From positions 96,361 through 160,360 of the forward strand of contig JAZDNV010000001.1 in NCBI GenBank assembly GCA_043799385.1: a stretch of DNA of 64,000 nt. The letters run 5' to 3'. Positions within the stretch are counted from its first letter, which is position 1, and each line of letters opens with the position of its first letter. The translations under genes were made by a program, and so were the position numbers. This stretch comes from Candidatus Aenigmatarchaeota archaeon. Its GTDB lineage: Archaea; Aenigmatarchaeota; Aenigmatarchaeia; GW2011-AR5. Shown here in pieces: positions 14,593 to 33,141 of the stretch. Under the pieces are notes generated by a model. It worked only from the letters and a program-made list of their open reading frames with translations. It did no database searches and was not told the origin of the DNA.

Positions 14593-15438
14593 CTACATTC
14601 TCCAGAAATCCATATAAGGTTTTGCCGTATTATTGTCTATTTCTGCAATGATAAAATGTCTAGAAAAATCCAATTCCTTGCGAACTATTCTTAATTTCGG
14701 AAGTATCACTCCTACACCACCATCCGAGCCTTTAATAAAAACCGGTATCGCGCCATTATAGAATACGTATCCAACAACATCTCTATATTTATCATAACTA
14801 GTGCCATGCTCATTTTGTTTGCCGTGATTGACAACGAGAATATTCTCTATCGTATCGTTTCTGACCGTAGTAAATATATGTCTTCCGTTATTTGTAAGAC
14901 AGTCATACTCTCTTATGAAAACCACAGGTTCTAAAATTATACCGCTTTCGCGATCTACACCTAAATGCCTTACGACTATAATATCGTCCTTTCTGACATT
15001 TTCTATAATCTCCCTCTTTTGCCCGGCTAGCCCTCCTGAATAAAACGATGTCAAGTTGCCCGATCTAGTAGTGCCGTCTGAAGATAGAAAGTCAACCGAT
15101 TTTTTGTAACCACTGATACCTTTTACAACGCCCCTGAAGATAGAAGGATGACGGTCAAACTCTTCGTATGCAATCTTAGATAGCCATTCTTCATAAGGAT
15201 TCAATTTTGTTGCAGCTGTTATATGAACATCATCCGAAATTTCTTCAGTCTTGAGTGAAAAATAATTGCCGGAAGTTTTATGCTCAACCATTCCAGGTCC
15301 AGTATATGACGAAAGAAATTTTTGCAAGACTTGCTTTGTAGCGGTTTTTAGTTCGGGTATTTTCTGCCTTAGGTTGTCGTATGTTATCTGTTCGCCACGT
15401 TTATAACATTTGGATAAATCAATCACAGGTAATGACAT
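14593..15438 (-). CDS. hypothetical protein, possibly degenerate metallophosphoesterase-like
   Basis: 281 aa; weak VVNHG and VVRHLG motifs reminiscent of calcineurin-like phosphoesterases; divergent from rtcA. Confidence 0.35.
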   Translation of the reverse strand: MSLPVIDLSKCYKRGEQITYDNLRQKIPELKTATKQVLQKFLSSYTGPGMVEHKTSGNYFSLKTEEISDDVHITAATKLNPYEEWLSKIAYEEFDRHPSIFRGVVKGISGYKKSVDFLSSDGTTRSGNLTSFYSGGLAGQKREIIENVRKDDIIVVRHLGVDRESGIILEPVVFIREYDCLTNNGRHIFTTVRNDTIENILVVNHGKQNEHGTSYDKYRDVVGYVFYNGAIPVFIKGSDGGVGVILPKLRIVRKELDFSRHFIIAEIDNNTAKPYMDFWRM

Positions 15439-17710: not shown

Positions 17711-18502
17711 TTAAATGCTTTGAATTTCTCTGCCTATTATGTCATGCGCATTGACGGAAAAGAACGAGCCGTTGTTTCTCAAAACCAGCAAATTCCCTTT
17801 TGCTGCCACAACACGGCCAGAAATGCTTATACCATCGCAGACCGAGATGTTTTCCGGGTCAGACAAAACATTTTGCAGTCGATAGAACCGTCTCATGTCG
17901 TAAATCTCAGGTTTTATGAGGTCAAATTTTTTTTCCTTCAGGCTAACCAGTGCCTTTGTTATATTTTCGGTAGCTACGTTCGGGTTGCCAAATAATGTTT
18001 TGTGTTTTTCGCTGCCAAGTATCCTATCAGCGATTGTCAGGTTATTCTTTATCTTTTGCTCTACGCTCCTCGCTTCTCTACCATCACGGATGAACGCTAT
18101 CTTTGCACCGAAATCCGCGCCCTGTTCGACCAGACGCTCTAATATCCTGTGTTCATAGGATATACCAACCTTCAGCAACGAGTCAAAAGCCGCCAGATAG
18201 ATATAGTAATTGTTTTTTTCGCACTCGCTACGTTTTTTTGGGTTTATGCACTCGCCACTGCATCTTATGCACTGGAAGAAGTCGTCATTCACTCGGCAGT
18301 CATCGCAATTCCACCCATGCCTTATCTCCCTGTTGTCCGGGCACGGATGATGCTTGCCATCTTTAAAAAAACCAACGCAGAATTTTTTTCCAAGATTGAT
18401 TGAGACATTTTCGTCGAATAATCGCATCCTACCAAAGTCCTTGCCGTCCTTTAAATTAAAGAAAGGTTCCCAGTTTACCCATTTGTAGCCGGTTATTTGC
18501 AT
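17711..18502 (-). CDS. hypothetical protein with Cys cluster (putative zinc-binding)
   Basis: 263 aa; CPDNREIRHGWNCDDC...CIRCSGEC cluster; no family recognised. Confidence 0.4.
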   Translation of the reverse strand: MQITGYKWVNWEPFFNLKDGKDFGRMRLFDENVSINLGKKFCVGFFKDGKHHPCPDNREIRHGWNCDDCRVNDDFFQCIRCSGECINPKKRSECEKNNYYIYLAAFDSLLKVGISYEHRILERLVEQGADFGAKIAFIRDGREARSVEQKIKNNLTIADRILGSEKHKTLFGNPNVATENITKALVSLKEKKFDLIKPEIYDMRRFYRLQNVLSDPENISVCDGISISGRVVAAKGNLLVLRNNGSFFSVNAHDIIGREIQSI

Positions 18503-19092
18503 ATTCGGTCAAAAGCCATCGTCACGTTTGCTAAAGTTTTTTCATCCATCAAGTCGTTTTTTAGCATTGAAAAAAGGTTTTTTGTCATCATCTCGAATTC
18601 CTTTCTGTACCTGAATTTATATAAGGTTTCCCTGAAAAAATCAGAGGAATAGTTATCAATTCCGTGAAAGCTCAACCAAGGAAGACTCATACCAATGAAA
18701 TCATTGAGTTTTTCTATTCCCTTCCCGTGTTCTGAAAAGATTATGTAGTAATAATAGAACAGCTCGTCTGAGAATTTTTTTGCAATCTTACGGTTCACGA
18801 TTATATCTTCAATGAATTCAGGAACATCCATGAATTTTTTCAAGTTTGCTTTGAGCAGCATTCTCAGAATAATTATTTTTATCGCCTTTTCGTCACAGCT
18901 CTGCACGAACGGGTCTTTATAATCTATCGTGATGGCGGCGTCAAAATCCAAGATTTCTATTTTATTCGTATCTCCCACGGAAAAAACAAGATTTTCATAC
19001 GGGACATCGATGAATTGTATGATTCTGTCAAATAGTTTGAATACGGTTCTTGTCCTGTCATCGGTCTTTTCGTATTTTTTTACAACGTGCAT
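18493..19092 (-). CDS. hypothetical protein (199 aa)
   Basis: ORF overlapping start of previous gene (operon); no recognised motif. Confidence 0.35.
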   Translation of the reverse strand: MHVVKKYEKTDDRTRTVFKLFDRIIQFIDVPYENLVFSVGDTNKIEILDFDAAITIDYKDPFVQSCDEKAIKIIILRMLLKANLKKFMDVPEFIEDIIVNRKIAKKFSDELFYYYYIIFSEHGKGIEKLNDFIGMSLPWLSFHGIDNYSSDFFRETLYKFRYRKEFEMMTKNLFSMLKNDLMDEKTLANVTMAFDRICK

Positions 19093-19114: not shown

Positions 19115-19960
19115 TTAAATTACACCTTTCCACTCCTTTATCGCTTTTTCATAGCGTTCGATATTGCCTATATCGAACCATTGGCCGCTGAACGGGTAAC
19201 CAAAAAGCTTATTCCTCTTGGCGATCTTCGGAAAAACGTCTTTTTCCAGAGACGAGAAGCCGTCCGGGATCATTTTTATGACATCCGGCTCAAGTATGTA
19301 AAATCCCGCGTTGATGAGGTTTGATTCGATTTTCTTCGGTTTTTCCATGAATTCCAGTATGTTAGTTCCGTCTAATTTCACGACGCCGTAATTTCCAGGC
19401 TCTTCAACCGTTGTCAGCGCAAGCGTCGCTAAAGCATCATTATTTTTATGTAGGCGGAACATCTCTTCAATGTTTATATTCTTTAATTCATCGCCATTCG
19501 AAACTATAAACGGTCCATTCAGGTGGTTTTTCGCAAGCTTTATCGGCCCGGCCGTGCCCAATGGTTCGTCTTCTTCAACGTAAGTTATTTTAACGCCGAA
19601 CTTCAAGCCATCGCCGAAATGGTTCCTTATCTTTTCTTTCATGTGGCCTACAGAAAGAATAATGTCGGTTATGCCATACTTCTTCAGCAGGTCGAAGAGA
19701 TGCTCAAGCATGGCCTTACCCTTTATCGGCATCAACGCCTTTGGTATTTCATATGTTATCGGCCTCAACCTTGTTCCTTTACCACCGCAGAGTATTAGCG
19801 CCTTTCTCGGGCAGTTGTCGCCAAAAGCCCGCAATAGAAGCAGCTCAAGCGCATGACTCCTGTTCTTTATTGTGTGGCCATCGACAATTCTGTCGATCTT
19901 CTCAACAAATTCCTTGTCAACCGTTACGCTTATCCGCTCTTTCATAAAATTATCATACAT
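19115..19960 (-). CDS. sugar-1-phosphate nucleotidyltransferase with N-terminal ribbon-helix-helix-like domain
   Basis: N-terminal about 45 aa (RISVTVDKEFVEKIDRIVDGHTIKNRSHALELLLLRAF) with CopG/RHH-like beta-alpha-alpha pattern. Followed by nucleotidyltransferase G-loop ALILCGGKGTRLRPIT and RmlA/ManC-like body. Confidence 0.65.
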   Translation of the reverse strand: MYDNFMKERISVTVDKEFVEKIDRIVDGHTIKNRSHALELLLLRAFGDNCPRKALILCGGKGTRLRPITYEIPKALMPIKGKAMLEHLFDLLKKYGITDIILSVGHMKEKIRNHFGDGLKFGVKITYVEEDEPLGTAGPIKLAKNHLNGPFIVSNGDELKNINIEEMFRLHKNNDALATLALTTVEEPGNYGVVKLDGTNILEFMEKPKKIESNLINAGFYILEPDVIKMIPDGFSSLEKDVFPKIAKRNKLFGYPFSGQWFDIGNIERYEKAIKEWKGVI

Positions 19961-19970
19961 CGTAATACTT

Positions 19971-20795
19971 TTAAATACTCCCCCACTCTTTTATCGCCTT
20001 TTCGTAGCCTTCATTGCTTCCGACGTCGAATATCTTTCCGTCGTGAACGAATCCGGACAACTGGTTTTCTCGTGCCAGCTTCGGGAATAACGTTTCTTCT
20101 ATCAAACCTTTACCGTTGTGGACAAGATTTAAAACATCAGGTTCAAGTATATAGAAGCCCGCGTTTATCAGGCTTGGTCCACTGGTCCTCGGATTTTCTA
20201 TGAATTTTGTTATATGATTGCCCTTCATCGCAGCAACGCCACCCCTAGGATTTTCCGTGAGAACAAGCAGAATCGTAGCAAGCGTTGATTGTTTTTTATG
20301 AAAATTTAGTATTTCGTAAATATCGGGATTCATCAGCGTATCAACGTTCATTGCAATGAAAGTGTCTTTTATATAATCCCTCGCCAGGTAAAGCGGATAG
20401 GCGGTGCCCATTGGTTTTTCCTCAGTGAGATAAGTTATGTTAACGCCAAATTTGCTACCATTACCGAAGTACTCCTTCACCTTTTCGTGCATGCTTCCCA
20501 CTGATAGGAGAATATTCCTTATATCATACCTTCTGAGCATGCTTATCTGGTATTCAAGTATCGGCCGACCGTGAATAGTTATCATCGGCTTCGGTATCTC
20601 ATAGGTCATAGGTCTTAGCCTTGCACCCGTTCCACCGGCAAGAATAAGTGCAGTGTTGATATCGGTTTTGCTCATCGCCCTCAACAAAAGGCTTTCGACT
20701 GCATGGCTCCTGCTCTTTATGTTCCTCTTGTCTATCATCCTGTCTAGCTTCTTCAGTATATCGTTCTTTATCGTTATCGTCACTCTTTCGACCAT
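19971..20795 (-). CDS. sugar-1-phosphate nucleotidyltransferase paralog with N-terminal ribbon-helix-helix-like domain
   Basis: Paralog of the downstream gene: VTITIKNDILKKLDRMIDKRNIKSRSHAVESLLLRAM then ALILAGGTGARLRPMT G-loop; only 10 nt separate the two genes. Confidence 0.65.
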   Translation of the reverse strand: MVERVTITIKNDILKKLDRMIDKRNIKSRSHAVESLLLRAMSKTDINTALILAGGTGARLRPMTYEIPKPMITIHGRPILEYQISMLRRYDIRNILLSVGSMHEKVKEYFGNGSKFGVNITYLTEEKPMGTAYPLYLARDYIKDTFIAMNVDTLMNPDIYEILNFHKKQSTLATILLVLTENPRGGVAAMKGNHITKFIENPRTSGPSLINAGFYILEPDVLNLVHNGKGLIEETLFPKLARENQLSGFVHDGKIFDVGSNEGYEKAIKEWGSI

Positions 20796-20823
20796 TCATA
20801 CACCAAACACACTTTATTATACA

Positions 20824-20885
20824 AAAGTATGAACGAAAAATATTTAAAAAGTATGAATAAGTATGAACATTAATATAAATAGGGT
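20824..20885. promoter_or_regulatory. divergent promoter region with three AAGTATGAA(C/T) direct repeats and TATA box for the heptose operon
   Basis: Repeats at 20825, 20849, 20859 (spacing 24 and 10 nt); TTAATATAAATA about 25 nt upstream of hddA ATG (20895); lies between the divergently transcribed RHH-NTase genes and the heptose/PPP operon. Confidence 0.4.
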
Positions 20886-20894
20886 GTATCAAAA

Positions 20895-21968
20895 ATGATA
20901 ATAAGAAGCCGGGCACCGGTGAGGATATCTTTCGGAGGCGGCGGGACAGACGTGCCGCCGTACTGCGATGAGCATGGCGGCTGCGTTCTATCAGCAACTA
21001 TAAACAAATACTCCTATGCGTCGCTGGAATCCAGGAACGACCAGGAAATCCACATAGAATCAGGCGATTTCCTGAAAAAACTGAGGTTCGGAAGCATAGA
21101 CGAGATGGCATACGACAATGAGTTGGATTTATTGAAGGCTGCGATAAAAAACCTAAACACCACACGAATGGGATTGAACATATTTCTGAGGAGCAGCATC
21201 CCGCCGAAGTCCGGCCTAGGCGGCTCTGCATCATGCTTCGTTGCGCTAATCGGGTTGTTCAACCATATAAGGGCTGATAAGATGACAAATTACGAAATAG
21301 CGGAATTAGCGCACAGGCTGGAGCGCGAGGAATTAAAGATAGCAGGCGGCAAGCAGGACCAGTATGCTGCTGTGTTCGGAGGGATAAACTTTATTGAATT
21401 CGGTGGCAATTGGGTCAGGGTTAATCCTATAACAATGAAGAAGGACCACCTGCTGGAACTGGAGAAGCATCTGGTTCTTGTTTATGTCGGCGACCGGCCA
21501 AAAGAGGACGTTACCAGAGAATACATAACAGGAAAAACGAAGACAGATGACATAATCGGAGACCAGGTCAAATCGGTTCTAGAAAAGAAAGAATCGGTTA
21601 TAGAGGCGCTTGACAGGACCAAAGAAATTGCGTTGGATATGAGGCGTGCGTTCATGATAGGAGATTTGATTGGCTTTGGTGAATTATTGCACAAGGCCTG
21701 GGAGGAGAAGAAGAAGTTTTCAAACATGATATCGAATAGATACATAGATGATCTGTATGCGTTGGCTAGAAAACACGGTGCAATAGGCGGGAAGATTACC
21801 GGTGCAGGTGGCGGCGGTTTCATGTTGTTCTTCTGCGAGCCGAACAAGGAGCAGATCGTTGCAGAGCAGCTTGAAAAGGCCGGCGCAAGGCCGACAAGTT
21901 TCGCGTTTGATTTTGATGGCTTGCAGACATGGGAAGTGGGTTATCTCACCGGTAGGGTGTACAGATGA
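20895..21968 (+). CDS. hddA: GHMP sugar kinase, probable D-glycero-alpha-D-manno-heptose 7-phosphate kinase
   Basis: GHMP motif PPKSGLGGSASCFVAL; N-terminus APVRISFGGGGTD typical of HddA/HldE-kinase-like GHMP kinases; directly upstream of gmhA/gmhB/hddC. Confidence 0.65.
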   Translation: MIIRSRAPVRISFGGGGTDVPPYCDEHGGCVLSATINKYSYASLESRNDQEIHIESGDFLKKLRFGSIDEMAYDNELDLLKAAIKNLNTTRMGLNIFLRSSIPPKSGLGGSASCFVALIGLFNHIRADKMTNYEIAELAHRLEREELKIAGGKQDQYAAVFGGINFIEFGGNWVRVNPITMKKDHLLELEKHLVLVYVGDRPKEDVTREYITGKTKTDDIIGDQVKSVLEKKESVIEALDRTKEIALDMRRAFMIGDLIGFGELLHKAWEEKKKFSNMISNRYIDDLYALARKHGAIGGKITGAGGGGFMLFFCEPNKEQIVAEQLEKAGARPTSFAFDFDGLQTWEVGYLTGRVYR

Positions 21969-22001
21969 GATGAATGGCGATACAATTCAAAACAGCGGTG
22001 T

Positions 22002-22595
22002 TTGAAAATGAAAGACAAAATAAAAGAAGCAATCGATGAGCACAGCAAATTAATAGATGAGATTGTAAGCGATTCTGAACTAATGAAAAAGATAGAAATC
22101 ATAACAAAAAGAATAATTGAATCTTACAAGATGGGCGGCAAGCTCGTTATTTTCGGCAACGGCGGCTCAGCAAGCGACGCGCAGCATATCGTCGCGGAGT
22201 TGATAAACAAGTTCAAGCTGGACAGACCGATGCTCAACGCACTGGCGCTGAACGTCAATACGTCTGTCATAACCGCTATTGCAAACGACTCTTCATACGA
22301 TGATGTTTTTTCAAAACAGATAGAATATCTGGTTGATTATAAGGACGTTGTTATCGGTATAAGCACCAGCGGAAAGTCAAGGAGCGTAATAAAGGCAATG
22401 CAGACGGCGAGAAATAAGGGCGCGCTTACAGTCGGCTTTACAGGAAGGACAGGCGGACCAATGAAGGATTATGTTGACATATTATTGAACATGCCATCCG
22501 ATTCCACGCCGAGAATACAGGAGGCGCACATACTGGCTGGGCACATAATCTGTGAGCTGATAGAGCAGGAATTATTCGGTAAGAAATATGAATAG
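22002..22595 (+). CDS. gmhA: sedoheptulose-7-phosphate isomerase (SIS domain)
   Basis: GKLVIFGNGGSASDAQHIVAEL phosphosugar-binding SIS signature, 197 aa. Confidence 0.8.
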   Translation: MKMKDKIKEAIDEHSKLIDEIVSDSELMKKIEIITKRIIESYKMGGKLVIFGNGGSASDAQHIVAELINKFKLDRPMLNALALNVNTSVITAIANDSSYDDVFSKQIEYLVDYKDVVIGISTSGKSRSVIKAMQTARNKGALTVGFTGRTGGPMKDYVDILLNMPSDSTPRIQEAHILAGHIICELIEQELFGKKYE

Positions 22596-23163
22596 AGCTG
22601 TATTCCTAGACAGGGACGGCGTAATTATCCGTCAGATGGAGGTAGTTTGCAAGCCAGAGCAGCTAAAAATACTGAAGGATTCAGGCAAGGCCATAAAGTT
22701 ACTGAACAATCTTGGGTTTCGTGTTGTGGTTGTCACGAATCAGCCGCAGGTTGCCAAGAACCAATGCACGGAAAGAGATGTCAGAAAAGTCAACGAATCG
22801 CTAAGGGCGAAGCTAATGAAGAGCGGTGCAAAGGTGGATGCTATATATTTCTGCCCTCATCATCCCGAAAGGCAGCATAGAGACATAATAGAAAAATGCA
22901 GAAAGTATAGGATAGCGTGTGAGTGCAGGAAACCCGATATCGGGATGCTTTTAAAGGCAAAGAAGAAATTTAACATTGATATACATTCATCTTTTATTGT
23001 TGGCGACCGCACAGTCGATGTACAGACAGGAAAGAATGCTGGTTGCAAGACAATATTAGTGAAAACAGGCTATGCCGGCAGCGACAAGAAATATGATGCG
23101 AAACCGGATTTCATATGCAGAGATTTGTATCGTGCAGCAAAGCTTATTGAGGGATTCGTATGA
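22588..23163 (+). CDS. gmhB: D,D-heptose 1,7-bisphosphate phosphatase (HAD-IIIA)
   Basis: HAD motif I FLDRDGVI, motif VVVTNQ, GDR motif (IVGDRTVD), Cys pattern CxHxxxxxC typical of GmhB zinc site; 191 aa. Confidence 0.75.
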   Translation: MNRAVFLDRDGVIIRQMEVVCKPEQLKILKDSGKAIKLLNNLGFRVVVVTNQPQVAKNQCTERDVRKVNESLRAKLMKSGAKVDAIYFCPHHPERQHRDIIEKCRKYRIACECRKPDIGMLLKAKKKFNIDIHSSFIVGDRTVDVQTGKNAGCKTILVKTGYAGSDKKYDAKPDFICRDLYRAAKLIEGFV

Positions 23164-24644
23164 AGGCAGTTATCATGGCCGGCGGGGTTGGAGAACGTCT
23201 GAGGCCGTTAACAGACGAAATGCCGAAGCCTATGCTGAAAATTGCAGGAAAACCCATACTTCAACACCAGATAGAGCTGCTGAAACGTTATGGAATAGAT
23301 GAAATAGTCATATGTGGTTCGCATCTTTTTGAAAAGATTAAGGAGTACTTTGGCGACGGCTCAGCTTTCGATGTAAGGATAGAATACTTGAGGGATGAAC
23401 AACTGGGAACAGGCGGCGCGCTGAAGAATGCCGAGAAATTTTTAGACGAAACATTTATTCTTCTCTATGGCGATACGATGATGAGGATGAATCTAAAACG
23501 ATTGATAGATTTCCACAAAAAAAGCAACGCAACGGTAACAATAACGCTGCATGAAACTGACCATCCGCATGACAGCGATTTGGTAAAAATAGATGAAAAT
23601 GGCATGGTCGTCCGCATATTCAACAAGCCGAATACGGGTATGCCTTCAAGACTAGGTAAATCATCGGTCTTTATCGTCGAACCTTCTGTGCTCAGTGATA
23701 TACCTGAAACAAGAAACGATTTTGAAAAGGATGTAATATCAAAATTAGTACCGTCAGGAAAGGTTTACGGATACTGCACAAGTGAATTCATAAAAGACAT
23801 CGGAACAACCGATAGGTACAAAAAGGTCAATGAGATATTCAGTAAGGAAAAAGAATTGAAAGTTATTGCTAAGGAGATAAGAAAACACATAATTAAAATG
23901 ACAACTTGTGCCAAATCTGGTCATCCGGGCGGCTCGCTATCAGCAGCTGATATAATAACGGCATTATATTTCTATAAAATGAGATATCGTCCGGATGAGC
24001 CCAACTGGAACGAGCGCGATAGATTCATTCTATCAAAAGGACACGCATGCCCAGTTCTGTATGCGGCTCTTGCAATTGCCGGATTTTTTCTGGCTGATGA
24101 ATTGATGACATCAAGAAAAATTAATTCAAGGATACAGGGTCACCCGTCAATGATTCTTCCGGGAATAGATGCATGTTCGGGTTCTCTCGGCCAGGGATTA
24201 TCTGTTGCGAACGGCATCGCTTTATCAGCTAGGATTGATAAAAAAGACTACAACGTGTATATTTTACTTGGCGACGGTGAGTTGCAGGAAGGCCAGATAT
24301 GGGAGGCTGCGATGACATCGTCCCAATACAAAATTAATAACCTTACCGCTATAGTTGATCGTAATGGATTACAGATTGATGGCAATACTGAAGACGTAAA
24401 GGGGTTGAATCCGTTGGCAGAAAAGTGGAGATCATTTGGTTGGCACGTTATTGAGATAGACGGTCATGACTTTCCACAGCTGTTGTACGCATTGGATATG
24501 AAGAGCGATAGACCAAAGGTAATAATTGCAAACACAATTAAGGGCAAGGGTGTCTGCTCAATGGAAAATAATATAGAATTCCATGGAAAGGTTTTGTGTG
24601 ATGAAGAATGCCAAAGAGCGATGAAAGAATTAGAATCGCAATAG
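23160..24644 (+). CDS. fusion protein: N-terminal heptose-1-phosphate nucleotidyltransferase (HddC-like) + C-terminal transketolase N-terminal (TPP-binding) half
   Basis: Residues about 1-230: G-loop IMAGGVGERLRPLT, NTP-transferase body. Residues about 240-494: transketolase motifs SGHPGGSLSAADIITALYF and GSLGQGLSVANG...LLGDGELQEGQIWEA. Single uninterrupted 494-aa ORF. Confidence 0.75.
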   Translation: MKAVIMAGGVGERLRPLTDEMPKPMLKIAGKPILQHQIELLKRYGIDEIVICGSHLFEKIKEYFGDGSAFDVRIEYLRDEQLGTGGALKNAEKFLDETFILLYGDTMMRMNLKRLIDFHKKSNATVTITLHETDHPHDSDLVKIDENGMVVRIFNKPNTGMPSRLGKSSVFIVEPSVLSDIPETRNDFEKDVISKLVPSGKVYGYCTSEFIKDIGTTDRYKKVNEIFSKEKELKVIAKEIRKHIIKMTTCAKSGHPGGSLSAADIITALYFYKMRYRPDEPNWNERDRFILSKGHACPVLYAALAIAGFFLADELMTSRKINSRIQGHPSMILPGIDACSGSLGQGLSVANGIALSARIDKKDYNVYILLGDGELQEGQIWEAAMTSSQYKINNLTAIVDRNGLQIDGNTEDVKGLNPLAEKWRSFGWHVIEIDGHDFPQLLYALDMKSDRPKVIIANTIKGKGVCSMENNIEFHGKVLCDEECQRAMKELESQ

Positions 24645-25069
24645 GATGCGACCATAGGGGATACGACTTGAAGGAGTCGTTAAAGGGTTATCTAGCTGGT
24701 AATGGCCATGAGGTAAAGGATTTCGGTACACACAGCAAAGATAGCGTTGATTACCCAGTTTTTGCAAAAGAGGTTGCAATGGCCATTGCAACCGGTGAAT
24801 ACAATCGCGGCATTCTCATATGCGGCAGCGGCATAGGCATGCAAATAGCTGCCGACAAGATAAAGAAGATACGGGCTGCGAACTGCCGTGATGAAGATGA
24901 TGCGTACAGGAGCAGGGCGCACAATGATGCGAACGTGCTGACACTAGGCGCAGATAAAATTACTGGTGATTTGGCAAAGAGGATTGTTGATAAGTGGCTG
25001 ACAACTGATTTCGAGGCAGGAAGGCACCAGAGAAGAGTAGACATGATAGAGGAGATGGAAAATGGTTAA
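24608..25069 (+). CDS. rpiB: ribose-5-phosphate isomerase B
   Basis: IAIGCDHRGYDLKESL, ILICGSGIGM motifs of RpiB/LacAB; 153 aa. Confidence 0.8.
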   Translation: MPKSDERIRIAIGCDHRGYDLKESLKGYLAGNGHEVKDFGTHSKDSVDYPVFAKEVAMAIATGEYNRGILICGSGIGMQIAADKIKKIRAANCRDEDDAYRSRAHNDANVLTLGADKITGDLAKRIVDKWLTTDFEAGRHQRRVDMIEEMENG

Positions 25070-25718
25070 GGTTGGAGCATCGTTGTTGGCAAAACAAGAG
25101 GAGATGGAAAAAGAATCATTAGCCAAGAAAATAACCAAACTGGAAAAGGCAGGAATAGATATGATACACTGGGACGTCATGGACGGTGTGTATAACCCTA
25201 TTAATACCATGGCTTTCCAGGGTCCTGATGTGATAAAGGAACTGAGGAAAATAACAGGGTTGCCGTTTGTCGCCCACTTGATGATAGCCAACCCGATAGA
25301 AAAAATACAGGCGTTCCATGAAGCAGGATGCGATATTATCGTTTTTCATTACGAAGCGTGCAAGAAAGACGATGTAAGCAAGACGATAGACGAGATAAGG
25401 TCATACAAAAGAATACCAGGCATTGCCATAGAGCCTGATACTCCAGTTGGGGTAATCTATCCGTATCTTGATCTATTAGATTACGTGCTCATAATGACCG
25501 TAAAAACGGGTTATGCTGGTCAGAAATTTATTGATGAGACCAATAAGATACGCAATCTTGCGTTAAAAAAAGGCAGTTTCGAGATAGATGTAGACGGTGG
25601 AATTAACGACATTACAGGGAAATTATGCATAGGGGCAGGCGCAACTGCCCTGTCAGCTGCCAGCTACATATCAGGCAGCGATGATTACAGCGTTGCAATA
25701 AAAAAATTGCGTGGTTAA
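25062..25718 (+). CDS. rpe: ribulose-phosphate 3-epimerase
   Basis: Rpe signature around HWDVMDG, TIM-barrel length 218 aa, DVDGGIN metal/phosphate-binding region. Confidence 0.8.
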   Translation: MVKVGASLLAKQEEMEKESLAKKITKLEKAGIDMIHWDVMDGVYNPINTMAFQGPDVIKELRKITGLPFVAHLMIANPIEKIQAFHEAGCDIIVFHYEACKKDDVSKTIDEIRSYKRIPGIAIEPDTPVGVIYPYLDLLDYVLIMTVKTGYAGQKFIDETNKIRNLALKKGSFEIDVDGGINDITGKLCIGAGATALSAASYISGSDDYSVAIKKLRG

Positions 25719-26634
25719 AATGAAATCAACACGTGATGCGTTCGGTGAGGCACTTGCAGAATTTGGCAGCGATGAGCGAATAGTCGTTCTTGACGCTGAC
25801 CTATCCAAATCAACTAAGACATGCATGTTTGCAGAAAAATTCCCAGACAGATTTTTTAACGTCGGTGTAGCTGAGCAGGATCTATTCGGAACTGCAGCAG
25901 GATTTGCTCTAACAGGAAAAATACCGTTTGCAAGCACTTTCGCCATCTTTGTTTGCAGGGCATGGGAGCAGATTAGAAACGCAATTGCATATCCAAACCT
26001 TAACGTGAGAATTGCTGCAACACATAGCGGCATAAGCTGCGGTGAGGACGGGGTTTCACATCATGCTACAGAGGATATTGCATTGATGCGTGCAATACCG
26101 AACATGGCAGTAATCGTTCCAGCGGATGCAATAGAAACAAAAAAAGCAATAAAGGCAACGCTAGATTGGCGTGGCCCTGTCTACATAAGGATGAACAGGC
26201 CGAAGAGCCCGTTAATATTCAATGATGATTATGACTATGAAATCGGCAACGCCAGCGTAATCAAAGACGGCAGCGATGTTTCAATAATAGCATGTGGCAT
26301 CATGGTCAGCGAGGCGGTGAAGGCATCAGAGATACTCAATAAAAACGGCATATCAGCAGAGGTTGTAAACATGCACACGATAAAACCGCTTGACGCAGAA
26401 ACAATTTTAAAGACAGGAAAAAAGACAGGGAGAATAGTTACGTGCGAAGACCACGGTATCATTGGCGGCCTTGGCTCTGCGGTCGCAGAAGTCATCGCAG
26501 GAAGCAATATCAAACTGGAGAGAATCGGCGTTAAAGGCTTTTGCGAATCCGGGAGCCACGAAGAACTTTTTATGAAATACGGATTGAATGCAGAAAGTAT
26601 TGCAAACGCTATTAAAAATCAGGTGATTAAATGA
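25711..26634 (+). CDS. transketolase C-terminal half (pyrimidine-binding and C-terminal domains)
   Basis: Split archaeal-type transketolase subunit B: FNVGVAEQDLFGTAAGFALTGKIPF, IRMNRP motifs; 307 aa. Confidence 0.8.
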   Translation: MVKMKSTRDAFGEALAEFGSDERIVVLDADLSKSTKTCMFAEKFPDRFFNVGVAEQDLFGTAAGFALTGKIPFASTFAIFVCRAWEQIRNAIAYPNLNVRIAATHSGISCGEDGVSHHATEDIALMRAIPNMAVIVPADAIETKKAIKATLDWRGPVYIRMNRPKSPLIFNDDYDYEIGNASVIKDGSDVSIIACGIMVSEAVKASEILNKNGISAEVVNMHTIKPLDAETILKTGKKTGRIVTCEDHGIIGGLGSAVAEVIAGSNIKLERIGVKGFCESGSHEELFMKYGLNAESIANAIKNQVIK

Positions 26635-27401
26635 AGATTTTTATTGACACATCAAAGCTAAACGAGATAAAAAAGATAAACGAACTTGGGGTATTGGACG
26701 GAGTTACGACCAACCCGTCTTTGATAAAACAAGCGGTCGACGATTTGAAGAGCAAAGGAGAAAATATTGATTTAGAGGATTACATAAAGGAAATCTGCAA
26801 AGCCTCAGGAAAGAATAAACCTGTCAGCTTAGAGGTAATAAGCACTGATGTAGCGTCGATGGTAAGCGAGGCAAAACTATTGCACAAGAAGTTCAATTTT
26901 GCAAACAACGTTGTAATAAAAATACCGCTAACTGCAGATGGATTAAAGGCGATTAATGAATTGAATAAATCCGGTATAAAAACGAATGCAACACTGATAA
27001 TGACAGTCGAGCAGGCATTGCTCGCAGCAAAGGCCGGAGCAACTTACGTATCACCATTCGCCGGAAGAATAGACGATTATCTACGGAGCGGTACGGAATA
27101 CAAAAAATCCGACTACTTTCCAGCGCATGGAACAGGAAAAGATGATAACGGAATAGTCAGCGGTGTTGACCTTGTGAGAAAGATCACAGATATATTCGAA
27201 ATTTTCAAAATAGATACAGAGATAATAGCGGCAAGCATTCGGAATGCAAGACAAGTTCGTGAAGTCGCATTAGCAGGCGCGCATATAGCGACTATACCGT
27301 TTTCTGTAATCAACGAGATGCTAAAACATTCAAAGACAGATGAAGGAATAATAAAATTCTCAGAGGATACGATACCAGAATACAGGAAAATATTCGATTA
27401 G
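26631..27401 (+). CDS. tal: transaldolase (short, fructose-6-phosphate aldolase-like type)
   Basis: MKIFIDTS...GVLDGVTTNPSLI signature, Schiff-base Lys region VVIKIP; 256 aa. Confidence 0.8.
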   Translation: MKIFIDTSKLNEIKKINELGVLDGVTTNPSLIKQAVDDLKSKGENIDLEDYIKEICKASGKNKPVSLEVISTDVASMVSEAKLLHKKFNFANNVVIKIPLTADGLKAINELNKSGIKTNATLIMTVEQALLAAKAGATYVSPFAGRIDDYLRSGTEYKKSDYFPAHGTGKDDNGIVSGVDLVRKITDIFEIFKIDTEIIAASIRNARQVREVALAGAHIATIPFSVINEMLKHSKTDEGIIKFSEDTIPEYRKIFD

Positions 27402-28459
27402 CTTTGCACATCGCTTATTATTTTTTTCATTTTTGTTACAAAGGCACCTATGTCAAACCTTTCTGCATTTTTCTGGATTAACTTATTATTCCATTTCATT
27501 TTTTCAAATTTTCCTATAGAATTGATTAGGGATTCTACGCTCGGCTCGAAGAAGACACCGGTATTCTTATTTACAGTTTCGAGAAGACCACCTTCTCTGA
27601 CAGCAATCACAGGCTTTCCGGCACATTGCGATTCGATTGCTGACAAGCCTAGGTCTTCATCCATCGCAGCGACGACGGTTGCTTTGCATCTTGCATACAA
27701 ATCGATAAGTTCCTCTTCACTGACATTACCAACGAACTCAATGTTATCATGACCTTCTGCTAATTTATTTAGTTTGCTTTCTTCCGGGCCGGTTGATGCT
27801 ACGACCAATCTTTTTCCATTTTTCTTGAAAGCTTCTACTACAAGGCCAACGCGCTTTAACGGATCTAGGCGAGACGTGGATAAGTAAAAATCTTCTGACG
27901 GCTTGCAATAAAATTTTTTCGTTTCTATTCCCGTATATACAACGTCGCATTTTTTGTAGGCGTCTTCGCCGTAAAATTTCCTAACCCTATTTTTGACGTT
28001 TTCAGAATTCGGGCAGATTCTGTCAAACTGCCTCATATATATCTGGTCCTTTTTCTTCCAGTAATTCATGAACATTTTGAATAGCGGACGCTGGATTATG
28101 TTAGTTCTTTTTATGAAGTATTCGTTGAGGTCGTATAGGTATCTTGGCGGTGTATGTAGGTAGAGAATGTTCGGATGATTTTTCGCAGCCGTTATGCACC
28201 AGGTTCCTGAAAAGACGAATGCATCATAATTTGGAAATTTGTATTTTTCGAATTTTTTTGCTATCATCAGGTTTCGCAGTATGTGAGGCAATCTCCTACT
28301 GATGCCGAGGCTTGTTATTTTTACACCGTCTGTGTCAAAGGTCTTATTGTAATCAACGAACCCCGTGTAGATATCCGCGCCCAAAGCCCTGGCTAAATTC
28401 AATACCAGACGCTCACCGCCGCCACGTTTGTCAAAATAATCATGCAGTATTGCTATCAT
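27398..28459 (-). CDS. glycosyltransferase family 4 (GT-B, retaining)
   Basis: GT4 C-terminal EX7E-like region (ESQCAGKPVIAVREGGLLETV); likely start at internal MIAILHD (28459), giving an ATGA overlap with the upstream GT4. Confidence 0.65.
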   Translation of the reverse strand: MIAILHDYFDKRGGGERLVLNLARALGADIYTGFVDYNKTFDTDGVKITSLGISRRLPHILRNLMIAKKFEKYKFPNYDAFVFSGTWCITAAKNHPNILYLHTPPRYLYDLNEYFIKRTNIIQRPLFKMFMNYWKKKDQIYMRQFDRICPNSENVKNRVRKFYGEDAYKKCDVVYTGIETKKFYCKPSEDFYLSTSRLDPLKRVGLVVEAFKKNGKRLVVASTGPEESKLNKLAEGHDNIEFVGNVSEEELIDLYARCKATVVAAMDEDLGLSAIESQCAGKPVIAVREGGLLETVNKNTGVFFEPSVESLINSIGKFEKMKWNNKLIQKNAERFDIGAFVTKMKKIISDVQS

Positions 28460-29523
28460 AACAATTCCTTGTATACCCTTTCTACATTCTCCGCTGTCCT
28501 GTCCCATGAAAACATTTTTGCTGTATCCAACCCATTCTTTCTCAATTTGTTTCTAAAGCCATCGTCCTGCAGGAGTTTGGTTATATTTTCTGCAAGTTTT
28601 TCGCCTAATAACGAATTGTTTTTATTGCAAAAGAAATAGGTTGATAAATCCTTTGCCACAACAGGCGTGCCGCATGCCATTGATTCAGCGAGAATCAACC
28701 CCAGGCCTTCAACAGAAGACGGGTTGATCAGGAACTGAGACGATTTGATTAGCCTTATCTTCTCCCTCTCAGGAACAAACCCGCGAAATTCAACGTTTAT
28801 TTTCAGTTTTTTTGTCATCCTTTTCAGATTCTCCTCTTCCGGGCCAGTTCCAACTATTATTAACTTTGTGTCTGTTTTTACCTTTCCGAACGCCTTAAGA
28901 AGCATATCAACATTCTTGTATTTTATCAGGCGCCCAACGTATATTATCTGGTCCACCTTTCTCGCCTTCACGCTGTTTATGAAATCCAAATCAATGCCTG
29001 ATACTATGGTTGTTATGTCTGATTTGAAACCCAACTGTCTCAGTTTTTTTTCTGTCGGCGGTGAGTTCGCAATTATCCTATCATATCGTAATCTAGACCA
29101 GAAGAATTCCATCGATTTTCCGAACCACGAATAAGGCTTGGAAAAATAACTGCTCCACTGATCCCAGTATATGTCATGAAAAGTAGCAACAATCGGTCTT
29201 CTAGTTAAGGGTGCAAAGAACCCCATGAAGGATGCCATTCCCTGATTAGCGTCTATGACATCATATTCGCTTTTCAGAGCCTTCAGGAAAGGCTTATAAC
29301 TCAACAACGGAAATAAAGACCTTTTACCCATACCGTGCCTGATGCCGAGCCTTATAATCTCTATGTCTTTATAGATTTCGTGGTCATCGCATCCGTTTAG
29401 CTTCAAAGAATATACGGTTATCTCATGTTTTTTTGACAATCTTTTTGCTATCTCTAGGTATCGTCTTTCTGCTCCGCCAAAAAGATACGGGTAGAACAAC
29501 TCACTGAGCATGCATATGTGCAT
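28456..29523 (-). CDS. glycosyltransferase family 4
   Basis: GT4 motifs (PSSVEGLGLILAESMACGTPVV), 355 aa. Confidence 0.7.
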   Translation of the reverse strand: MHICMLSELFYPYLFGGAERRYLEIAKRLSKKHEITVYSLKLNGCDDHEIYKDIEIIRLGIRHGMGKRSLFPLLSYKPFLKALKSEYDVIDANQGMASFMGFFAPLTRRPIVATFHDIYWDQWSSYFSKPYSWFGKSMEFFWSRLRYDRIIANSPPTEKKLRQLGFKSDITTIVSGIDLDFINSVKARKVDQIIYVGRLIKYKNVDMLLKAFGKVKTDTKLIIVGTGPEEENLKRMTKKLKINVEFRGFVPEREKIRLIKSSQFLINPSSVEGLGLILAESMACGTPVVAKDLSTYFFCNKNNSLLGEKLAENITKLLQDDGFRNKLRKNGLDTAKMFSWDRTAENVERVYKELL

Positions 29524-30850: not shown

Positions 30851-31669
30851 ATGAAAGCGATAATACTTGCTGCCGGACGCGGAACAAGGCTGCGCCCATT
30901 AACATACGGCATACCTAAACCGCTTCTTCCGGTAAAAGGAACGCCGATGATAGACTGGGTCATACGAAGCATTTCCAGTGAAAAGATAGAAGAGATAATT
31001 GTTGGCACGTCAGGAACAATTGGAGAAAACATGGAAGAGCGGGTGCTATCGCATATTCACGGCATCTGCATCGATTCCTATCTTAAGAACCAGACTTATG
31101 ATTGCAAAATAAGAACGGTCCCTACTTTACAGCGCGAGACAGGCGGTGATTTGAGGTATATTCTTGAAGAAATCAACATGAAGAAAGGAAAGATAATAGT
31201 TGTTTATGGCGACAATCTCACGTCATTCAACATTGACAAACTTCTCGATTATCATGAAAAATGCAAAAACGAGCTTGGCATCGCAGGCACAGTAGTCTTG
31301 TTCGAATCACCTGAGAGCGATGTGAACCGCTTCGGGATAGCGAAATTAAAAAACGTGAAAGGCTTTGATTTGGTAACATCTTTCATAGAAAAGCCGTCGT
31401 TGCAAGAAGCACCGTCACGATACGCGAGTGCCGGTTATTACATTCTTGAAGTGGACGAGGTATTCGATATGCTTCCGCATGAAAAGGTAAAGGTTGAGCA
31501 TTCAGTATTCCCAGTCTTGGCAAGCCAGAACAAACTTGCTGGTTATATAACAAAGCTTCCTTACTGGATTGATATAAGCACCTTGGAGGCATACATTACG
31601 GCGAACAAGATGGCTCATGACGGTCTTATAATCCCACCATCGCTTCCGAATAAAGGAAACAACATATGA
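30851..31669 (+). CDS. sugar-1-phosphate nucleotidyltransferase
   Basis: G-loop AIILAAGRGTRLRPLT; probable start at MKAIIL (30851) rather than 30827. Confidence 0.7.
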   Translation: MKAIILAAGRGTRLRPLTYGIPKPLLPVKGTPMIDWVIRSISSEKIEEIIVGTSGTIGENMEERVLSHIHGICIDSYLKNQTYDCKIRTVPTLQRETGGDLRYILEEINMKKGKIIVVYGDNLTSFNIDKLLDYHEKCKNELGIAGTVVLFESPESDVNRFGIAKLKNVKGFDLVTSFIEKPSLQEAPSRYASAGYYILEVDEVFDMLPHEKVKVEHSVFPVLASQNKLAGYITKLPYWIDISTLEAYITANKMAHDGLIIPPSLPNKGNNI

Positions 31670-33141
31670 TGATTATGAATATCAAGAAAATAGTTTTACT
31701 TTTATTGGCTATTAATGCAGTTCTAGTCCTCATCCCTGCAATTGTTTTTAATCTGCCGATTGTTCAGACAGACGGTGCGTCTCATTACGTTTATGCCAAG
31801 GTTTATTCAGAAACATTTTCACTGGATTCTGAAAATCCCGAATACAACCGCATGGGTTCTGTCGAAAAAAAGCTTTCTGACTACCCGCCATTTGTTACGA
31901 TAGTTTTTGGCTCGATTATAAAAATGTTCGGCAATGACATATTCCTTATAAACGGTGGTTTCGGTCTTGCATTCTTTCTGCTTGCATCAATATTCATGTA
32001 TATCTTCATAAAAGATATCACAAAAAACAACACTGTTGCGATTATAGGCCTTGCTTTCTTCATTCTGAATATAAGAGCTTATTACACGCTCTTCACAGGA
32101 ATATACCCAGCGTTCGTCTCCTTCTGCCTTTCCATACCGGCGCTGTATTTTTCATATAAATTCTTTTTGTCAGGTAATAATAGGAATCTTGTGTTGTCGC
32201 TGCTTTTCACCTGTATGACTGTCTTTGCTTATACTATACAGGGTCTTTATCTAATATTCCTAGAAATCATGTTATGGTTCGGGATAAAGCTTGAGGAAAA
32301 ACTTTCTGTGCACTTCCCGAAAATAAATGCTAGGATAAAAAGAATTTCATTGAGCGACTTCAAGAATGCGATTTATCTGCTAATACCCACTGCGTTATTC
32401 TTATTTTTTGTTATAATCTCATTCACACTGAAGGGCACCACAAGAGAGACGTGGTTAAGCGGATGGTTTTCAGGACTGATGAGCACCTGCACCGGTTACC
32501 AATGTGTCTGGAAGCACTTCTTTATAGTTGAAGGGTTGATTGCACTATTTGCGATATTCGGTTCAATCTACCTGTTCTACAAAAAAGACTGGAAGATAAT
32601 CACGCTTCTTTTAGGTGGTTTTTTGATAGTGATATCAGGAAGCATTTTTATCGAGGGTGAACCGACAATACTGGTTTACATCTATCGTTTCTATACAACA
32701 TTTTCAGCGCTGCTGGTGATACCGGCAAGCGTTTTCATATATAAAATCATTTCAATGAAAGAGGTCAGAAATATAGGAATAGTGTTTCTGGCTCTATGCA
32801 TTTTTATTCAGTTGGCGATATTAGGATACTTCTATTTGAATATCGGACCTGCGATAACGCAGGGTGAGTACGATGCGGCTTCATTTCTTTCTGGTCATAC
32901 GAAATCGAATATACTTTACGTAAACAATGAGGTTGATGAAGGGACGTTCAGGTCGTTCAAGTGGGTTGTTGTCTTTGCCAAATCAGAAAAATACAGCGTA
33001 AGCGAGAGCGTAGGCAATTTGACCGGATTTGACTACGTCTTCGTTCAGGATAAGGATAAACTGAGTGCTGATGAAAAAAACAAGCTAGGCAATAACATAG
33101 CATTCAATAGCGGCAACGCACAGGTTTACAAAATAGCCTGA
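31666..33141 (+). CDS. polytopic membrane protein, possible GT-C-type glycosyltransferase or glycan polymerase
   Basis: 491 aa, more than 10 predicted TM helices, large C-terminal extracytoplasmic domain; embedded in glycan cluster; no specific family motif recognised. Confidence 0.4.
   Translation: MMIMNIKKIVLLLLAINAVLVLIPAIVFNLPIVQTDGASHYVYAKVYSETFSLDSENPEYNRMGSVEKKLSDYPPFVTIVFGSIIKMFGNDIFLINGGFGLAFFLLASIFMYIFIKDITKNNTVAIIGLAFFILNIRAYYTLFTGIYPAFVSFCLSIPALYFSYKFFLSGNNRNLVLSLLFTCMTVFAYTIQGLYLIFLEIMLWFGIKLEEKLSVHFPKINARIKRISLSDFKNAIYLLIPTALFLFFVIISFTLKGTTRETWLSGWFSGLMSTCTGYQCVWKHFFIVEGLIALFAIFGSIYLFYKKDWKIITLLLGGFLIVISGSIFIEGEPTILVYIYRFYTTFSALLVIPASVFIYKIISMKEVRNIGIVFLALCIFIQLAILGYFYLNIGPAITQGEYDAASFLSGHTKSNILYVNNEVDEGTFRSFKWVVVFAKSEKYSVSESVGNLTGFDYVFVQDKDKLSADEKNKLGNNIAFNSGNAQVYKIA

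Follow-up and report, generated by a model that had tools for sequence, protein, structure and literature searches.

An operon of predicted heptose-activation and non-oxidative pentose phosphate genes with a nucleotidyltransferase–transketolase fusion in Candidatus Aenigmatarchaeota

Introduction

Why would an archaeon with a reduced genome carry a complete non-oxidative pentose phosphate pathway (PPP), and why would its genes lie in one operon with those for an activated heptose? The question is raised by positions 20895-27401 of a 64-kb stretch of contig JAZDNV010000001.1 (hereafter the window, meaning the whole stretch that was analyzed). The window belongs to a metagenome-assembled genome of Candidatus Aenigmatarchaeota, a DPANN lineage. 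Its SerRS is 100% identical to a protein of an NCBI Candidatus Aenigmatarchaeota MAG, and the remaining housekeeping genes also have an archaeal character. The eight genes of the locus encode homologs of HddA, GmhA, GmhB and HddC, the last being a sugar-1-phosphate nucleotidyltransferase (NTase), together with ribose-5-phosphate isomerase B (RpiB), ribulose-5-phosphate 3-epimerase (Rpe), transaldolase (Tal) and a transketolase (Tkt) split into an N-terminal half (TktN) and a C-terminal half (TktC). The NTase and TktN form a single polypeptide.

As judged from gene order and homology, a functional coupling of heptose synthesis to the PPP, through sedoheptulose-7-phosphate (S7P), is well supported. 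A preliminary description of the locus had gone further and proposed that the PPP enzymes were recruited mainly as an S7P factory for glycan synthesis. The link itself stands, given that the joint operon is kept in relatives and that NTase::TktN fusions occur in three lineages; the word "mainly", however, describes one possibility and not the default.

Organization of the operon

Eight co-directional open reading frames (ORFs) on the forward strand were called at exactly the coordinates first proposed (Table 1). Their domains were assigned with Pfam and NCBIfam, and structures were compared through matches to Protein Data Bank (PDB) sequences. These searches bore out the earlier gene calls for all eight genes, and every family needed for the claimed completeness of the heptose and non-oxidative PPP sets was present. 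The junctions between the genes overlap by 4-37 nt, with the 33-nt gap between hddA and gmhA as sole exception, so that the earlier wording of overlaps throughout applies to most junctions but not to this one. On the 5' side the operon is bordered by a 99-bp divergent promoter region, while on the 3' side tal and a convergent glycosyltransferase family 4 (GT4) gene overlap by 4 nt at their stops. Within the 64-kb window, as distinct from the rest of the genome, there is no second copy of tkt, tal, rpi or rpe. Scans of the same 64 kb for tRNA genes and Rfam families gave no matches.

Table 1. Positions of the operon genes and of the neighboring features discussed in the text
Feature	Coordinates	Strand	Domain or other evidence
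hddA-like GHMP kinase (D-glycero-D-manno-heptose-7-P 1-kinase type), 357 aa	20895..21968	+	GHMP_kinases_N/C, NCBIfam HddA
gmhA, sedoheptulose-7-P isomerase, 197 aa, TTG start	22002..22595	+	SIS_2
gmhB, heptose-1,7-bisphosphate 7-phosphatase, 191 aa	22588..23163	+	HAD-IIIA
HddC-like sugar-1-P NTase::TktN fusion, 494 aa	23160..24644	+	NTP_transferase + Transketolase_N
rpiB, ribose-5-P isomerase B, 153 aa	24608..25069	+	LacAB_rpiB 197 bits
rpe, ribulose-5-P 3-epimerase, 218 aa	25062..25718	+	Ribul_P_3_epim 143 bits
tktC, transketolase C-terminal half, 307 aa, GTG start	25711..26634	+	Transket_pyr + Transketolase_C
tal, short-type transaldolase, 256 aa	26631..27401	+	TAL_FSA
Divergent promoter/operator region between RHH-NTase gene and hddA	20796..20894	.	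AAGTATGAAY repeats
NTP-transferase with N-terminal ribbon-helix-helix (RHH), divergent from operon	19971..20795	-	RHH_1 (E=5e-4) + NTP_transferase
Second RHH-type NTP-transferase paralog	19115..19960	-	NTP_transferase 53-275
GT4 glycosyltransferase, convergent with tal	27398..28507	-	Glycos_transf_1, Glyco_transf_4
Second GT4 glycosyltransferase	28456..29523	-	Pfam

Heptose enzymes

The GHMP kinase has the HddA model as its best NCBIfam match (258 bits, cut-off 600), followed at a distance by fucokinase (101 bits), and the match spans the full length of both partners (residues 1-348 versus model positions 1-338 of 338). In the PDB it is matched by the heptokinases 3k85, 4usk (WcbL) and 4n3o (C. 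jejuni) at 1e-58 to 1e-63, whereas fucokinase follows at 1e-21 and mevalonate and galactokinases at 1e-9 to 1e-14. A galacto-, mevalonate- or fucokinase identity was rejected on these values. The enzyme thus did not turn out to be related to the galacto- or mevalonate kinases, the result that had been named in advance as a refutation, and it is regarded as HddA-like. Two heptose pathways are known, and kinases of the GHMP type belong to the one that proceeds via the alpha-anomer. The kinase type of the operon would imply this alpha-anomer route.

The SIS protein matches GmhA of B. pseudomallei (2xbl) at 2.6e-52. Its alignment retains the motifs GNGGSA.DAQH...E and IQE.H...GH, whose His, Glu, Gln and His are presumably the Zn and catalytic residues. 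With phosphoheptose isomerase matches of about 1e-52 and these ligands in place, its description as GmhA is upheld; GmhA models are its best NCBIfam matches, yet they remain below the equivalog cut-off (186 of 276 and 177 of 209 bits). The phosphatase reaches 158 bits with NF006506 (cut-off 178) and passes TIGR01656 and TIGR01662. It lies closer to E. coli GmhB (3l8e, 2e-25) than to HisB-N (5e-10), and its alignment shows the DRDG (DxDG) motif and the Cys/His motifs CPHH...CxCRKP of the Zn loop.

The NTase domain has the right fold and a full-length match for HddC. Its best NCBIfam model is, however, mannose-1-phosphate guanylyltransferase (149 bits versus 105 for HddC, whose cut-off is 300), and in the PDB the mannose-1-phosphate guanylyltransferases (about 5e-29) and Yersinia HddC (6e-25) are about equally close, so that the domain is not diagnostic. 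The assignment as HddC rests on context, and GDP is the likely nucleotide. In the same way, naming the product GDP-D-glycero-D-manno-heptose combines best hit and context, because the four enzymes miss their equivalog cut-offs.

These shortfalls, together with the higher score of the NTase with the mannose-1-phosphate model, could be read as a sign that no heptose pathway exists here: the product of the NTase would be GDP-mannose or a different hexose nucleotide, and the other three enzymes would act on other sugar phosphates. Against this, the clear best match is a heptose-specific family for each of three independent enzymes, the four genes together make up the canonical set for heptose, a combination seen in many metagenomic clusters, and an adjacent source of S7P fits heptose. 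The absence of a heptose pathway is considered extremely unlikely.

Pentose phosphate enzymes

RpiB and Rpe pass the cut-offs of their models (177 bits with TIGR01120, cut-off 138.65, and 174 bits with NF004076, cut-off 165, respectively). The two transketolase halves complement one another on NF004559: of its 627 positions TktN covers 13-281 and TktC 317-624. The thiamine pyrophosphate (TPP) motif GDG...N can be recognized in the TktN translation, and the TPP-binding, pyrimidine-binding and C-terminal domains are all present across the two halves. The TktN of the window is 60-69% identical to the TktN proteins of Woesearchaeota and Aenigmatarchaeota and about 60% identical to bacterial ones, which accords with PMC8407392.

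The transaldolase matches transaldolases of the PDB at 1e-48 to 1e-51 and fructose-6-phosphate aldolase (FSA) at about 1e-25. It contains the Tal-type Glu (SLEVIS) and Phe (SPFAGR), which we take as the Tal signature, Gln and Tyr being that of FSA. Its identity as FSA was rejected on the PDB scores and these two residues. In the Tal alignment Lys97, which we take to be the Schiff-base residue, is invariant, as are Glu68, Phe143 and Arg146.

Compared to the PDB transaldolases, the enzyme carries an insertion, which is about 22 aa long in the window copy (residues ~155-177) and 27-32 aa long in the relatives. The insertion directly follows the phosphate-binding segment GRIDDY, and its motif DYFPAxG...DNGIxSGVDLV is found in all Aenigmatarchaeota operon transaldolases but is absent from those of loci L001 and L026 (see below) and of the PDB. 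It could affect acceptor specificity or oligomerization. In most relatives about 8 further residues occur after the strand with the catalytic Lys.

The NTase::TktN fusion

In the fusion ORF, Pfam places NTP_transferase at residues 2-226 and Transketolase_N at residues 236-489. At the DNA level this corresponds to ~23160-23860 for the NTase and ~23865-24644 for TktN, so the linker is very short. An assembly or frameshift artifact was rejected, as in-frame junctions are present in four independent assemblies (the window and loci L003, L004 and L005). The hddC::tktN fusion of the preliminary description is hence real, with comparable in-frame junctions in three other assemblies.

The architecture appears to be rare. 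Among the matches listed from a collection of 5.8 billion proteins, NTP_transferase plus Transketolase_N was found besides the window only in P0001, P0002 and P0004. A HMMER search of 1.84 billion representatives with the junction only returned no protein that spans the NTase/TktN junction of the window; this search indicates rarity but cannot count the fusions of class A, which are evidently subsumed under other representatives. The fusion protein has no cluster of at least 90% identity in the 5.8-billion-protein collection (best match 64%), while SerRS of the same contig is found there at 100%. The source record may have left the fusion gene without annotation or marked it as a pseudogene.

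The locus in related Aenigmatarchaeota

A scan of species-representative genomes with HddA led to L005 of an uncultured sediment archaeon, whose HddA is 82% identical to that of the window. Its gene order is that of the window, with additional gmhB::NTase::tktN and rpiB::rpe fusions. The proteins P0002 (688 aa) and P0001 are likewise gmhB::NTase::tktN triple fusions, and the operons in which they lie (L003 and L004) read gmhA - gmhB::NTase::tktN - rpiB::rpe - tktC - tal. The nearest unfused TktN homologs (P0006, P0008 and P0014, the last labeled Aenigmarchaeota) all lie in a common neighborhood, gmhA' - NTase - hddA' - gmhB::NTase - tktN - rpiB::rpe - tktC - tal - epimerase, followed by GT4. 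The state of the fusions differs between loci: NTase::tktN in the window, gmhB::NTase::tktN with rpiB::rpe in L003 and L005, and gmhB::NTase in L008-L011.

The flanks are also shared. In L005, L008, L009/L010 and L011, as in the window, the operon is preceded by RTC - Hsp20 - MBL - DUF2797 - hypothetical - RHH-NTase, all on one strand, and followed by GT4. Across the syntenic loci the block gmhB-NTase-tktN-rpiB-rpe-tktC-tal is 50-69% identical, whereas the gmhA/hddA module is more divergent between the two architectures (37-42% identity, class B); the window GmhA is closer (56%) to the GmhA of the unrelated locus L001. Because of this difference in identity, the link between heptose activation and the PPP is regarded as the oldest conserved part. 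The shared flanks and neighborhood argue that the locus is an inherited feature of the lineage, and the operon is best read as a vertically inherited, syntenic locus of the Aenigmatarchaeota.

In L011 a two-gene cassette that resembles a toxin-antitoxin pair (UPF0175/RHH_8 + DUF3368, 9017-9823) separates tktN from rpiB, and here rpiB is not fused to rpe. The 199-aa ORF at 18493-19092 (-) of the window, which has no Pfam match, is syntenic beside DUF2797 in all relatives at 31-39% identity.

Recurrence in other lineages

In L001/L002 (30% GC) the order NTase::tktN - tktC - tal - gmhA - gmhB is found with a GHMP kinase upstream, within another glycan island. Compared to the window, the NTase domain is only 29% identical and TktN 57%. 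The junction-only search also brought up TktN proteins with N-terminal extensions of other kinds. In one of these, P0325, TktN is fused to rfaE_dom_II, a heptose-1-phosphate adenylyltransferase domain that passes its trusted cut-off (188.3 versus 181.5 bits) and has a different fold from the NTase of the window. The P0325 contigs, L096/L097 from two samples (28% GC), carry gmhB - hldE-II::tktN - tktC - tal, and P0391 is one more cluster with the rfaE_dom_II::TktN architecture. By these domain assignments, the fusion of a heptose NTase to TktN recurs in three lineages and with two unrelated NTase folds.

Fusions of a PfkB-type kinase to TktN were considered as HldE-kinase::TktN and rejected: they are ribokinase-like (235-265 bits with TIGR02152 versus 45-48 with rfaE_dom_I). 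Such ribokinase::TktN proteins in public data (P0270, P0316, P0389 and P0260) have no bearing on heptose, but they too join a sugar-entry enzyme to the N-terminal half of transketolase.

As background, 80 metagenomic loci were collected with a GmhB::NTase profile. They are mostly heptose-type clusters, some from human-gut metagenomes; many, but not all, hold a complete hddA/gmhA/gmhB/hddC cluster, and many of the contigs are short. A transketolase was nearby in none of these 80 loci of GmhB homologs, many of them on short contigs, and the same metagenome scan yielded no further operons of the Aenigmatarchaeota type.

Observations that weigh against a coupling can be brought together at this point. 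All four heptose enzymes stay under the NCBIfam equivalog cut-offs (258/600, 186/276, 158/178 and 105/300), the NTase domain is not nearer to HddC than to mannose-1-phosphate guanylyltransferases, and a fusion between the last heptose enzyme and the first PPP gene could simply reflect adjacency. Furthermore, neither PPP genes nor gmhB are present at the syntenic locus L006, where hddA, a gmhA-like gene, the RHH-NTases and the GT4 genes have been kept, and because of this locus the coupling is not obligatory.

Another reading is a neutral co-location, in which a bacteria-derived housekeeping PPP operon came to lie beside heptose genes and the fusions, devoid of functional meaning, arose by chance where stop and start codons overlap. 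Overlaps are tight in compact DPANN genomes, where the loss of a stop or a frame change of 1 nt readily fuses neighbors; the variable fusion states suggest that such events are frequent, and L006 does without the PPP part. However, the joint arrangement is retained among relatives whose proteins are 50-65% identical, and it recurs in two other lineages with different gene orders and, in one of them, a non-homologous NTase. It is absent from the 80 background loci, and S7P links both halves directly. Neutral co-location is held to be improbable.

A transaldolase is present in two of the 80 background loci, both without transketolase: L026 (5219-9904: gmhB-hddA-gmhA-tal-GT2-NTase) and L043 (175-2075: gmhB-hddC-tal). 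These may represent an independent recruitment, possibly of the type known from the GDP-octose of lincomycin and celesticetin, whose synthesis employs the transaldolase LmbR, isomerase LmbN, kinase LmbP, phosphatase LmbK and guanylyltransferase LmbO (PMC4351081, PMC5854111). Among the systems considered, the Lmb pathway is the sole characterized one that, like the window, clusters a transaldolase with enzymes of the GmhA/HddA/GmhB/HddC type. It differs in belonging to Streptomyces secondary metabolism, in its C8 product, and in lacking transketolase, Rpe, RpiB and fusions.

By analogy, the transaldolase of the window might add a C3 unit to ribose-5-phosphate (R5P) provided by RpiB, Rpe and Tkt, and the octulose-8-phosphate formed would be converted to an NDP-octose by the GmhA/HddA/GmhB/HddC-like enzymes. 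The use of the same enzyme families with a dedicated transaldolase in the Lmb pathway (PMC4351081, PMC5854111) speaks for this, as does the Tal insertion, which directly follows the GR phosphate-binding motif and could shift the acceptor preference. In clusters such as L026 and L043, with Tal but without Tkt, R5P would also be a simpler acceptor than erythrose-4-phosphate (E4P). On the other side, GmhA matches bona fide phosphoheptose isomerases at about 1e-52 with all catalytic residues kept, HddA is nearest to characterized heptokinases, and transketolase supplies S7P directly. The prior is also low, as octoses are generally known only from secondary metabolism. A C7 product is favored over an Lmb-like C8 product because the full PPP of the window points to S7P, and the octose alternative is judged very improbable.

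Proposed metabolic role

According to the explanation that is probably correct, the locus is a supply-and-demand operon in which a general non-oxidative PPP, doing double duty, feeds S7P into NDP-heptose synthesis. Starting from fructose-6-phosphate (F6P) and glyceraldehyde-3-phosphate (GAP), Tkt would form E4P and xylulose-5-phosphate (Xu5P), and Tal would convert F6P and E4P to S7P and GAP. Rpe and RpiB would interconvert Xu5P, ribulose-5-phosphate and R5P, after which Tkt could combine Xu5P and R5P to give S7P and GAP. The sum from hexose would be 4 F6P -> 3 S7P + GAP, a stoichiometry that would require all five polypeptides. Such a balance, which draws on both Rpe and RpiB, would explain the value of having an epimerase and an isomerase in the operon. 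Alternatively, S7P might be drawn from salvaged pentoses (2 pentose-P -> S7P + GAP).

GmhA would subsequently isomerize S7P to D-glycero-D-manno-heptose-7-phosphate, from which HddA, GmhB and the NTase would yield NDP-heptose. Probable users of this product are the conserved GT4 transferases next to the operon and the surrounding glycan island with AglB and a flippase, which would decorate the cell surface. Co-transcription and fusion would tie the S7P output to the demand for heptose. Predicted parts of this scheme are the direction of flux, the nucleotide, the destination in the glycan, and a control exerted via the RHH-NTase and the AGTATGAA repeats described below.

The preliminary description had started from the premise that archaea normally use the ribulose monophosphate (RuMP) route. 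This premise is inapplicable to a DPANN host, as DPANN outside the Altiarchaeota were reported to lack RuMP enzymes (PMC8407392), and for the same reason the source of S7P must be Tkt/Tal. Bacteria-derived Tkt/Tal were reported in 21.6-42.4% of DPANN genomes and interpreted as a bypass of phosphofructokinase (Pfk) (PMC8407392). Given this interpretation and the lack of RuMP, a general PPP, co-regulated with what would be its chief biosynthetic outlet for S7P, is favored over a dedicated one. Most likely the cell has no non-oxidative PPP besides the one encoded in the operon, which would also serve the interconversion of pentoses and hexoses.

It is also conceivable that the PPP of the operon serves mainly or only the S7P supply for glycans, with the pentoses of nucleotides coming from host nucleotides or salvage. 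According to PMC8407114, the Aenigmatarchaeota do not synthesize nucleotides de novo, which would lower the need for R5P. At every Aenigmatarchaeota locus examined that has Tkt/Tal, these genes lie inside the heptose operon; the conserved Tal insertion is specific for the clade, the fusion of a heptose NTase to TktN is repeated, and the full enzyme set would close the balance given above. Nevertheless, marine Woesearchaeota (L012-L015) possess TktN proteins that are 63-65% identical and have no heptose genes nearby, the published reading of DPANN Tkt/Tal is one of central carbon metabolism and Pfk bypass (PMC8407392), and all enzymes look catalytically standard. A dedicated S7P factory is accordingly seen as a possible but rather unlikely role, and the double duty of a general PPP remains the preferred explanation.

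Comparison to known systems

Like the canonical HddA/GmhA/GmhB/HddC heptose clusters, the window combines the same four families in one cluster within a surface-glycan locus. It differs from them in its DPANN host, in the fusion of the NTase to a transketolase half and in the co-operonic presence of the whole non-oxidative PPP. With the bacteria-derived non-oxidative PPP of DPANN it shares the same enzymes (split TktN/TktC, Tal, RpiB and Rpe). However, while the literature treats the DPANN PPP as central carbon metabolism and Pfk bypass, in the window and the examined Aenigmatarchaeota relatives it is part of a heptose operon with fusions between the two pathways.

The ADP-heptose (HldE-type) pathway has the entry from S7P via GmhA, as well as GmhB, in common with the window. 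It relies on a PfkB-type kinase and an NTase of the cytidylyltransferase fold, whereas no PfkB or CTP_transf_like domain occurs in the window operon. In L096/L097, the HldE-domain-II enzyme is likewise fused to TktN and lies beside gmhB, tktC and tal.

Heptose in archaea had been presented as unusual, but there are precedents. The N-glycan of Thermoplasma acidophilum contains heptose (PMC11407970), and functional NDP-heptose enzymes in archaea are mentioned in a passage of PMC11461863 that cites Tang et al. In the KEGG-style tables of the PMC8407114 supplement, gmhA and hddA are entered for a few genomes of Aenigmarchaeota. The supplement was not usable for the co-occurrence of gmhA/hddA with tkt/tal across 20 Aenigmarchaeota genomes, as its table looks like a list of HGT calls and has no tkt/tal rows. 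Thermoplasma acidophilum, of a different phylum from the window, thus provides an archaeal example of a surface glycan with heptose. Thermoplasma also possesses a non-oxidative PPP, and we know of no joint operon or fusion in this genus. In full-text literature searches, no publication was found that links heptose genes to a tkt/tal operon or describes these fusions. The operon organization and the fusion appear to be unreported; the pathways and enzymes themselves are already known.

Promoter region and surrounding glycan island

Three AAGTATGAAY repeats (20825, 20849 and 20859) flank a TATA-like ATATTTAAA element in the promoter region upstream of hddA. The window has five matches to this motif versus 0.34 expected, and three of the five lie in this region. 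The orthologous intergenic regions of L005 (7463-7543), L006 (9930-10000), L008 (4326-4383), L009 (4361-4427) and L011 (4119-4253) carry copies of AGTATGAA in the same arrangement. The direct-repeat array typically consists of a 10-bp-spaced tandem pair with 1-2 extra copies around a TATA-like A[AT]TATTTAAA, and it is a candidate operator.

The divergent RHH-NTase has orthologs of 50-59% identity at the same position in L005, L006, L008, L009 and L011. It is a candidate regulator and/or a second sugar-1-phosphate NTase, and may even act as a "trigger enzyme", an enzyme that doubles as a regulator, by binding to the AGTATGAA repeats. The N-terminus of its paralog ("ISVTVDKEFVEKIDRIV...NRSHALELLLLRA") is RHH-like by eye and resembles that of the neighboring gene, but has no Pfam RHH match; this gene has an ortholog in L006. 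A joint scenario can be imagined in which the NTase::TktN fusion serves to match S7P production to NDP-heptose synthesis or to place it under the control of that synthesis, a heptose-rich surface glycan matters for host contact, and the repeats and the RHH-NTase form an autoregulatory switch that senses sugar nucleotides. Taken as a whole, this scenario is speculative and doubtful.

The convergent GT4 is a candidate heptosyltransferase. In L006, L008 and L011, an ortholog with 50-63% identity immediately follows the operon. The operon is enclosed in a surface-glycan island of ~45 kb (~19 kb to 63 kb of the window). This island contains several NTP-transferases, GT4 and GT2 glycosyltransferases, UDP-glucose dehydrogenase, epimerases/dehydratases, an aminotransferase, a CMP-sugar synthetase-like gene, four B12-radical-SAM genes, a flippase and STT3/AglB.

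The B12-binding radical-SAM genes are located at 39186-40610 (+), 41714-43123 (-), 50866-52308 (-) and 61380-62762 (-). Their products may perform C-methylation or other radical tailoring of sugars. A similar gene adjoins the unrelated heptose-plus-Tal cluster of L026 (9997-11475). AglB/STT3 is split into two ORFs in different frames with a 20-nt overlap: an N-terminal membrane domain of 398 aa (Pfam STT3, 56936-58132, -) and a C-terminal part of 373 aa with a YWDPGH variant of the WWDYG motif (55834-56955, -). A frameshift, a pseudogene or a sequencing error could account for the split, and so could a genuine enzyme in two pieces. Further ORFs of the window without Pfam match are those at 8210-10195 (-, 661 aa), 31666-33141 (+, 491 aa) and 14593-15438 (-, 281 aa).

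Significance

The enzymes of the operon are ordinary, and the advance concerns the organization of a pathway and not new chemistry. Tkt/Tal, read so far in DPANN as a glycolytic bypass, are in one whole DPANN lineage wired by operon and fusion to the predicted synthesis of an activated heptose. The fusion of a heptose NTase to TktN, found with two unrelated NTase folds, constitutes a "Rosetta-stone" pair that may be used to annotate modules for S7P supply elsewhere. For the organism itself, the arrangement offers a metabolic rationale for keeping (or acquiring) a full non-oxidative PPP in a reduced genome, and it leads to the testable prediction that the host-dependent Aenigmatarchaeota would bear heptose-containing surface glycans.

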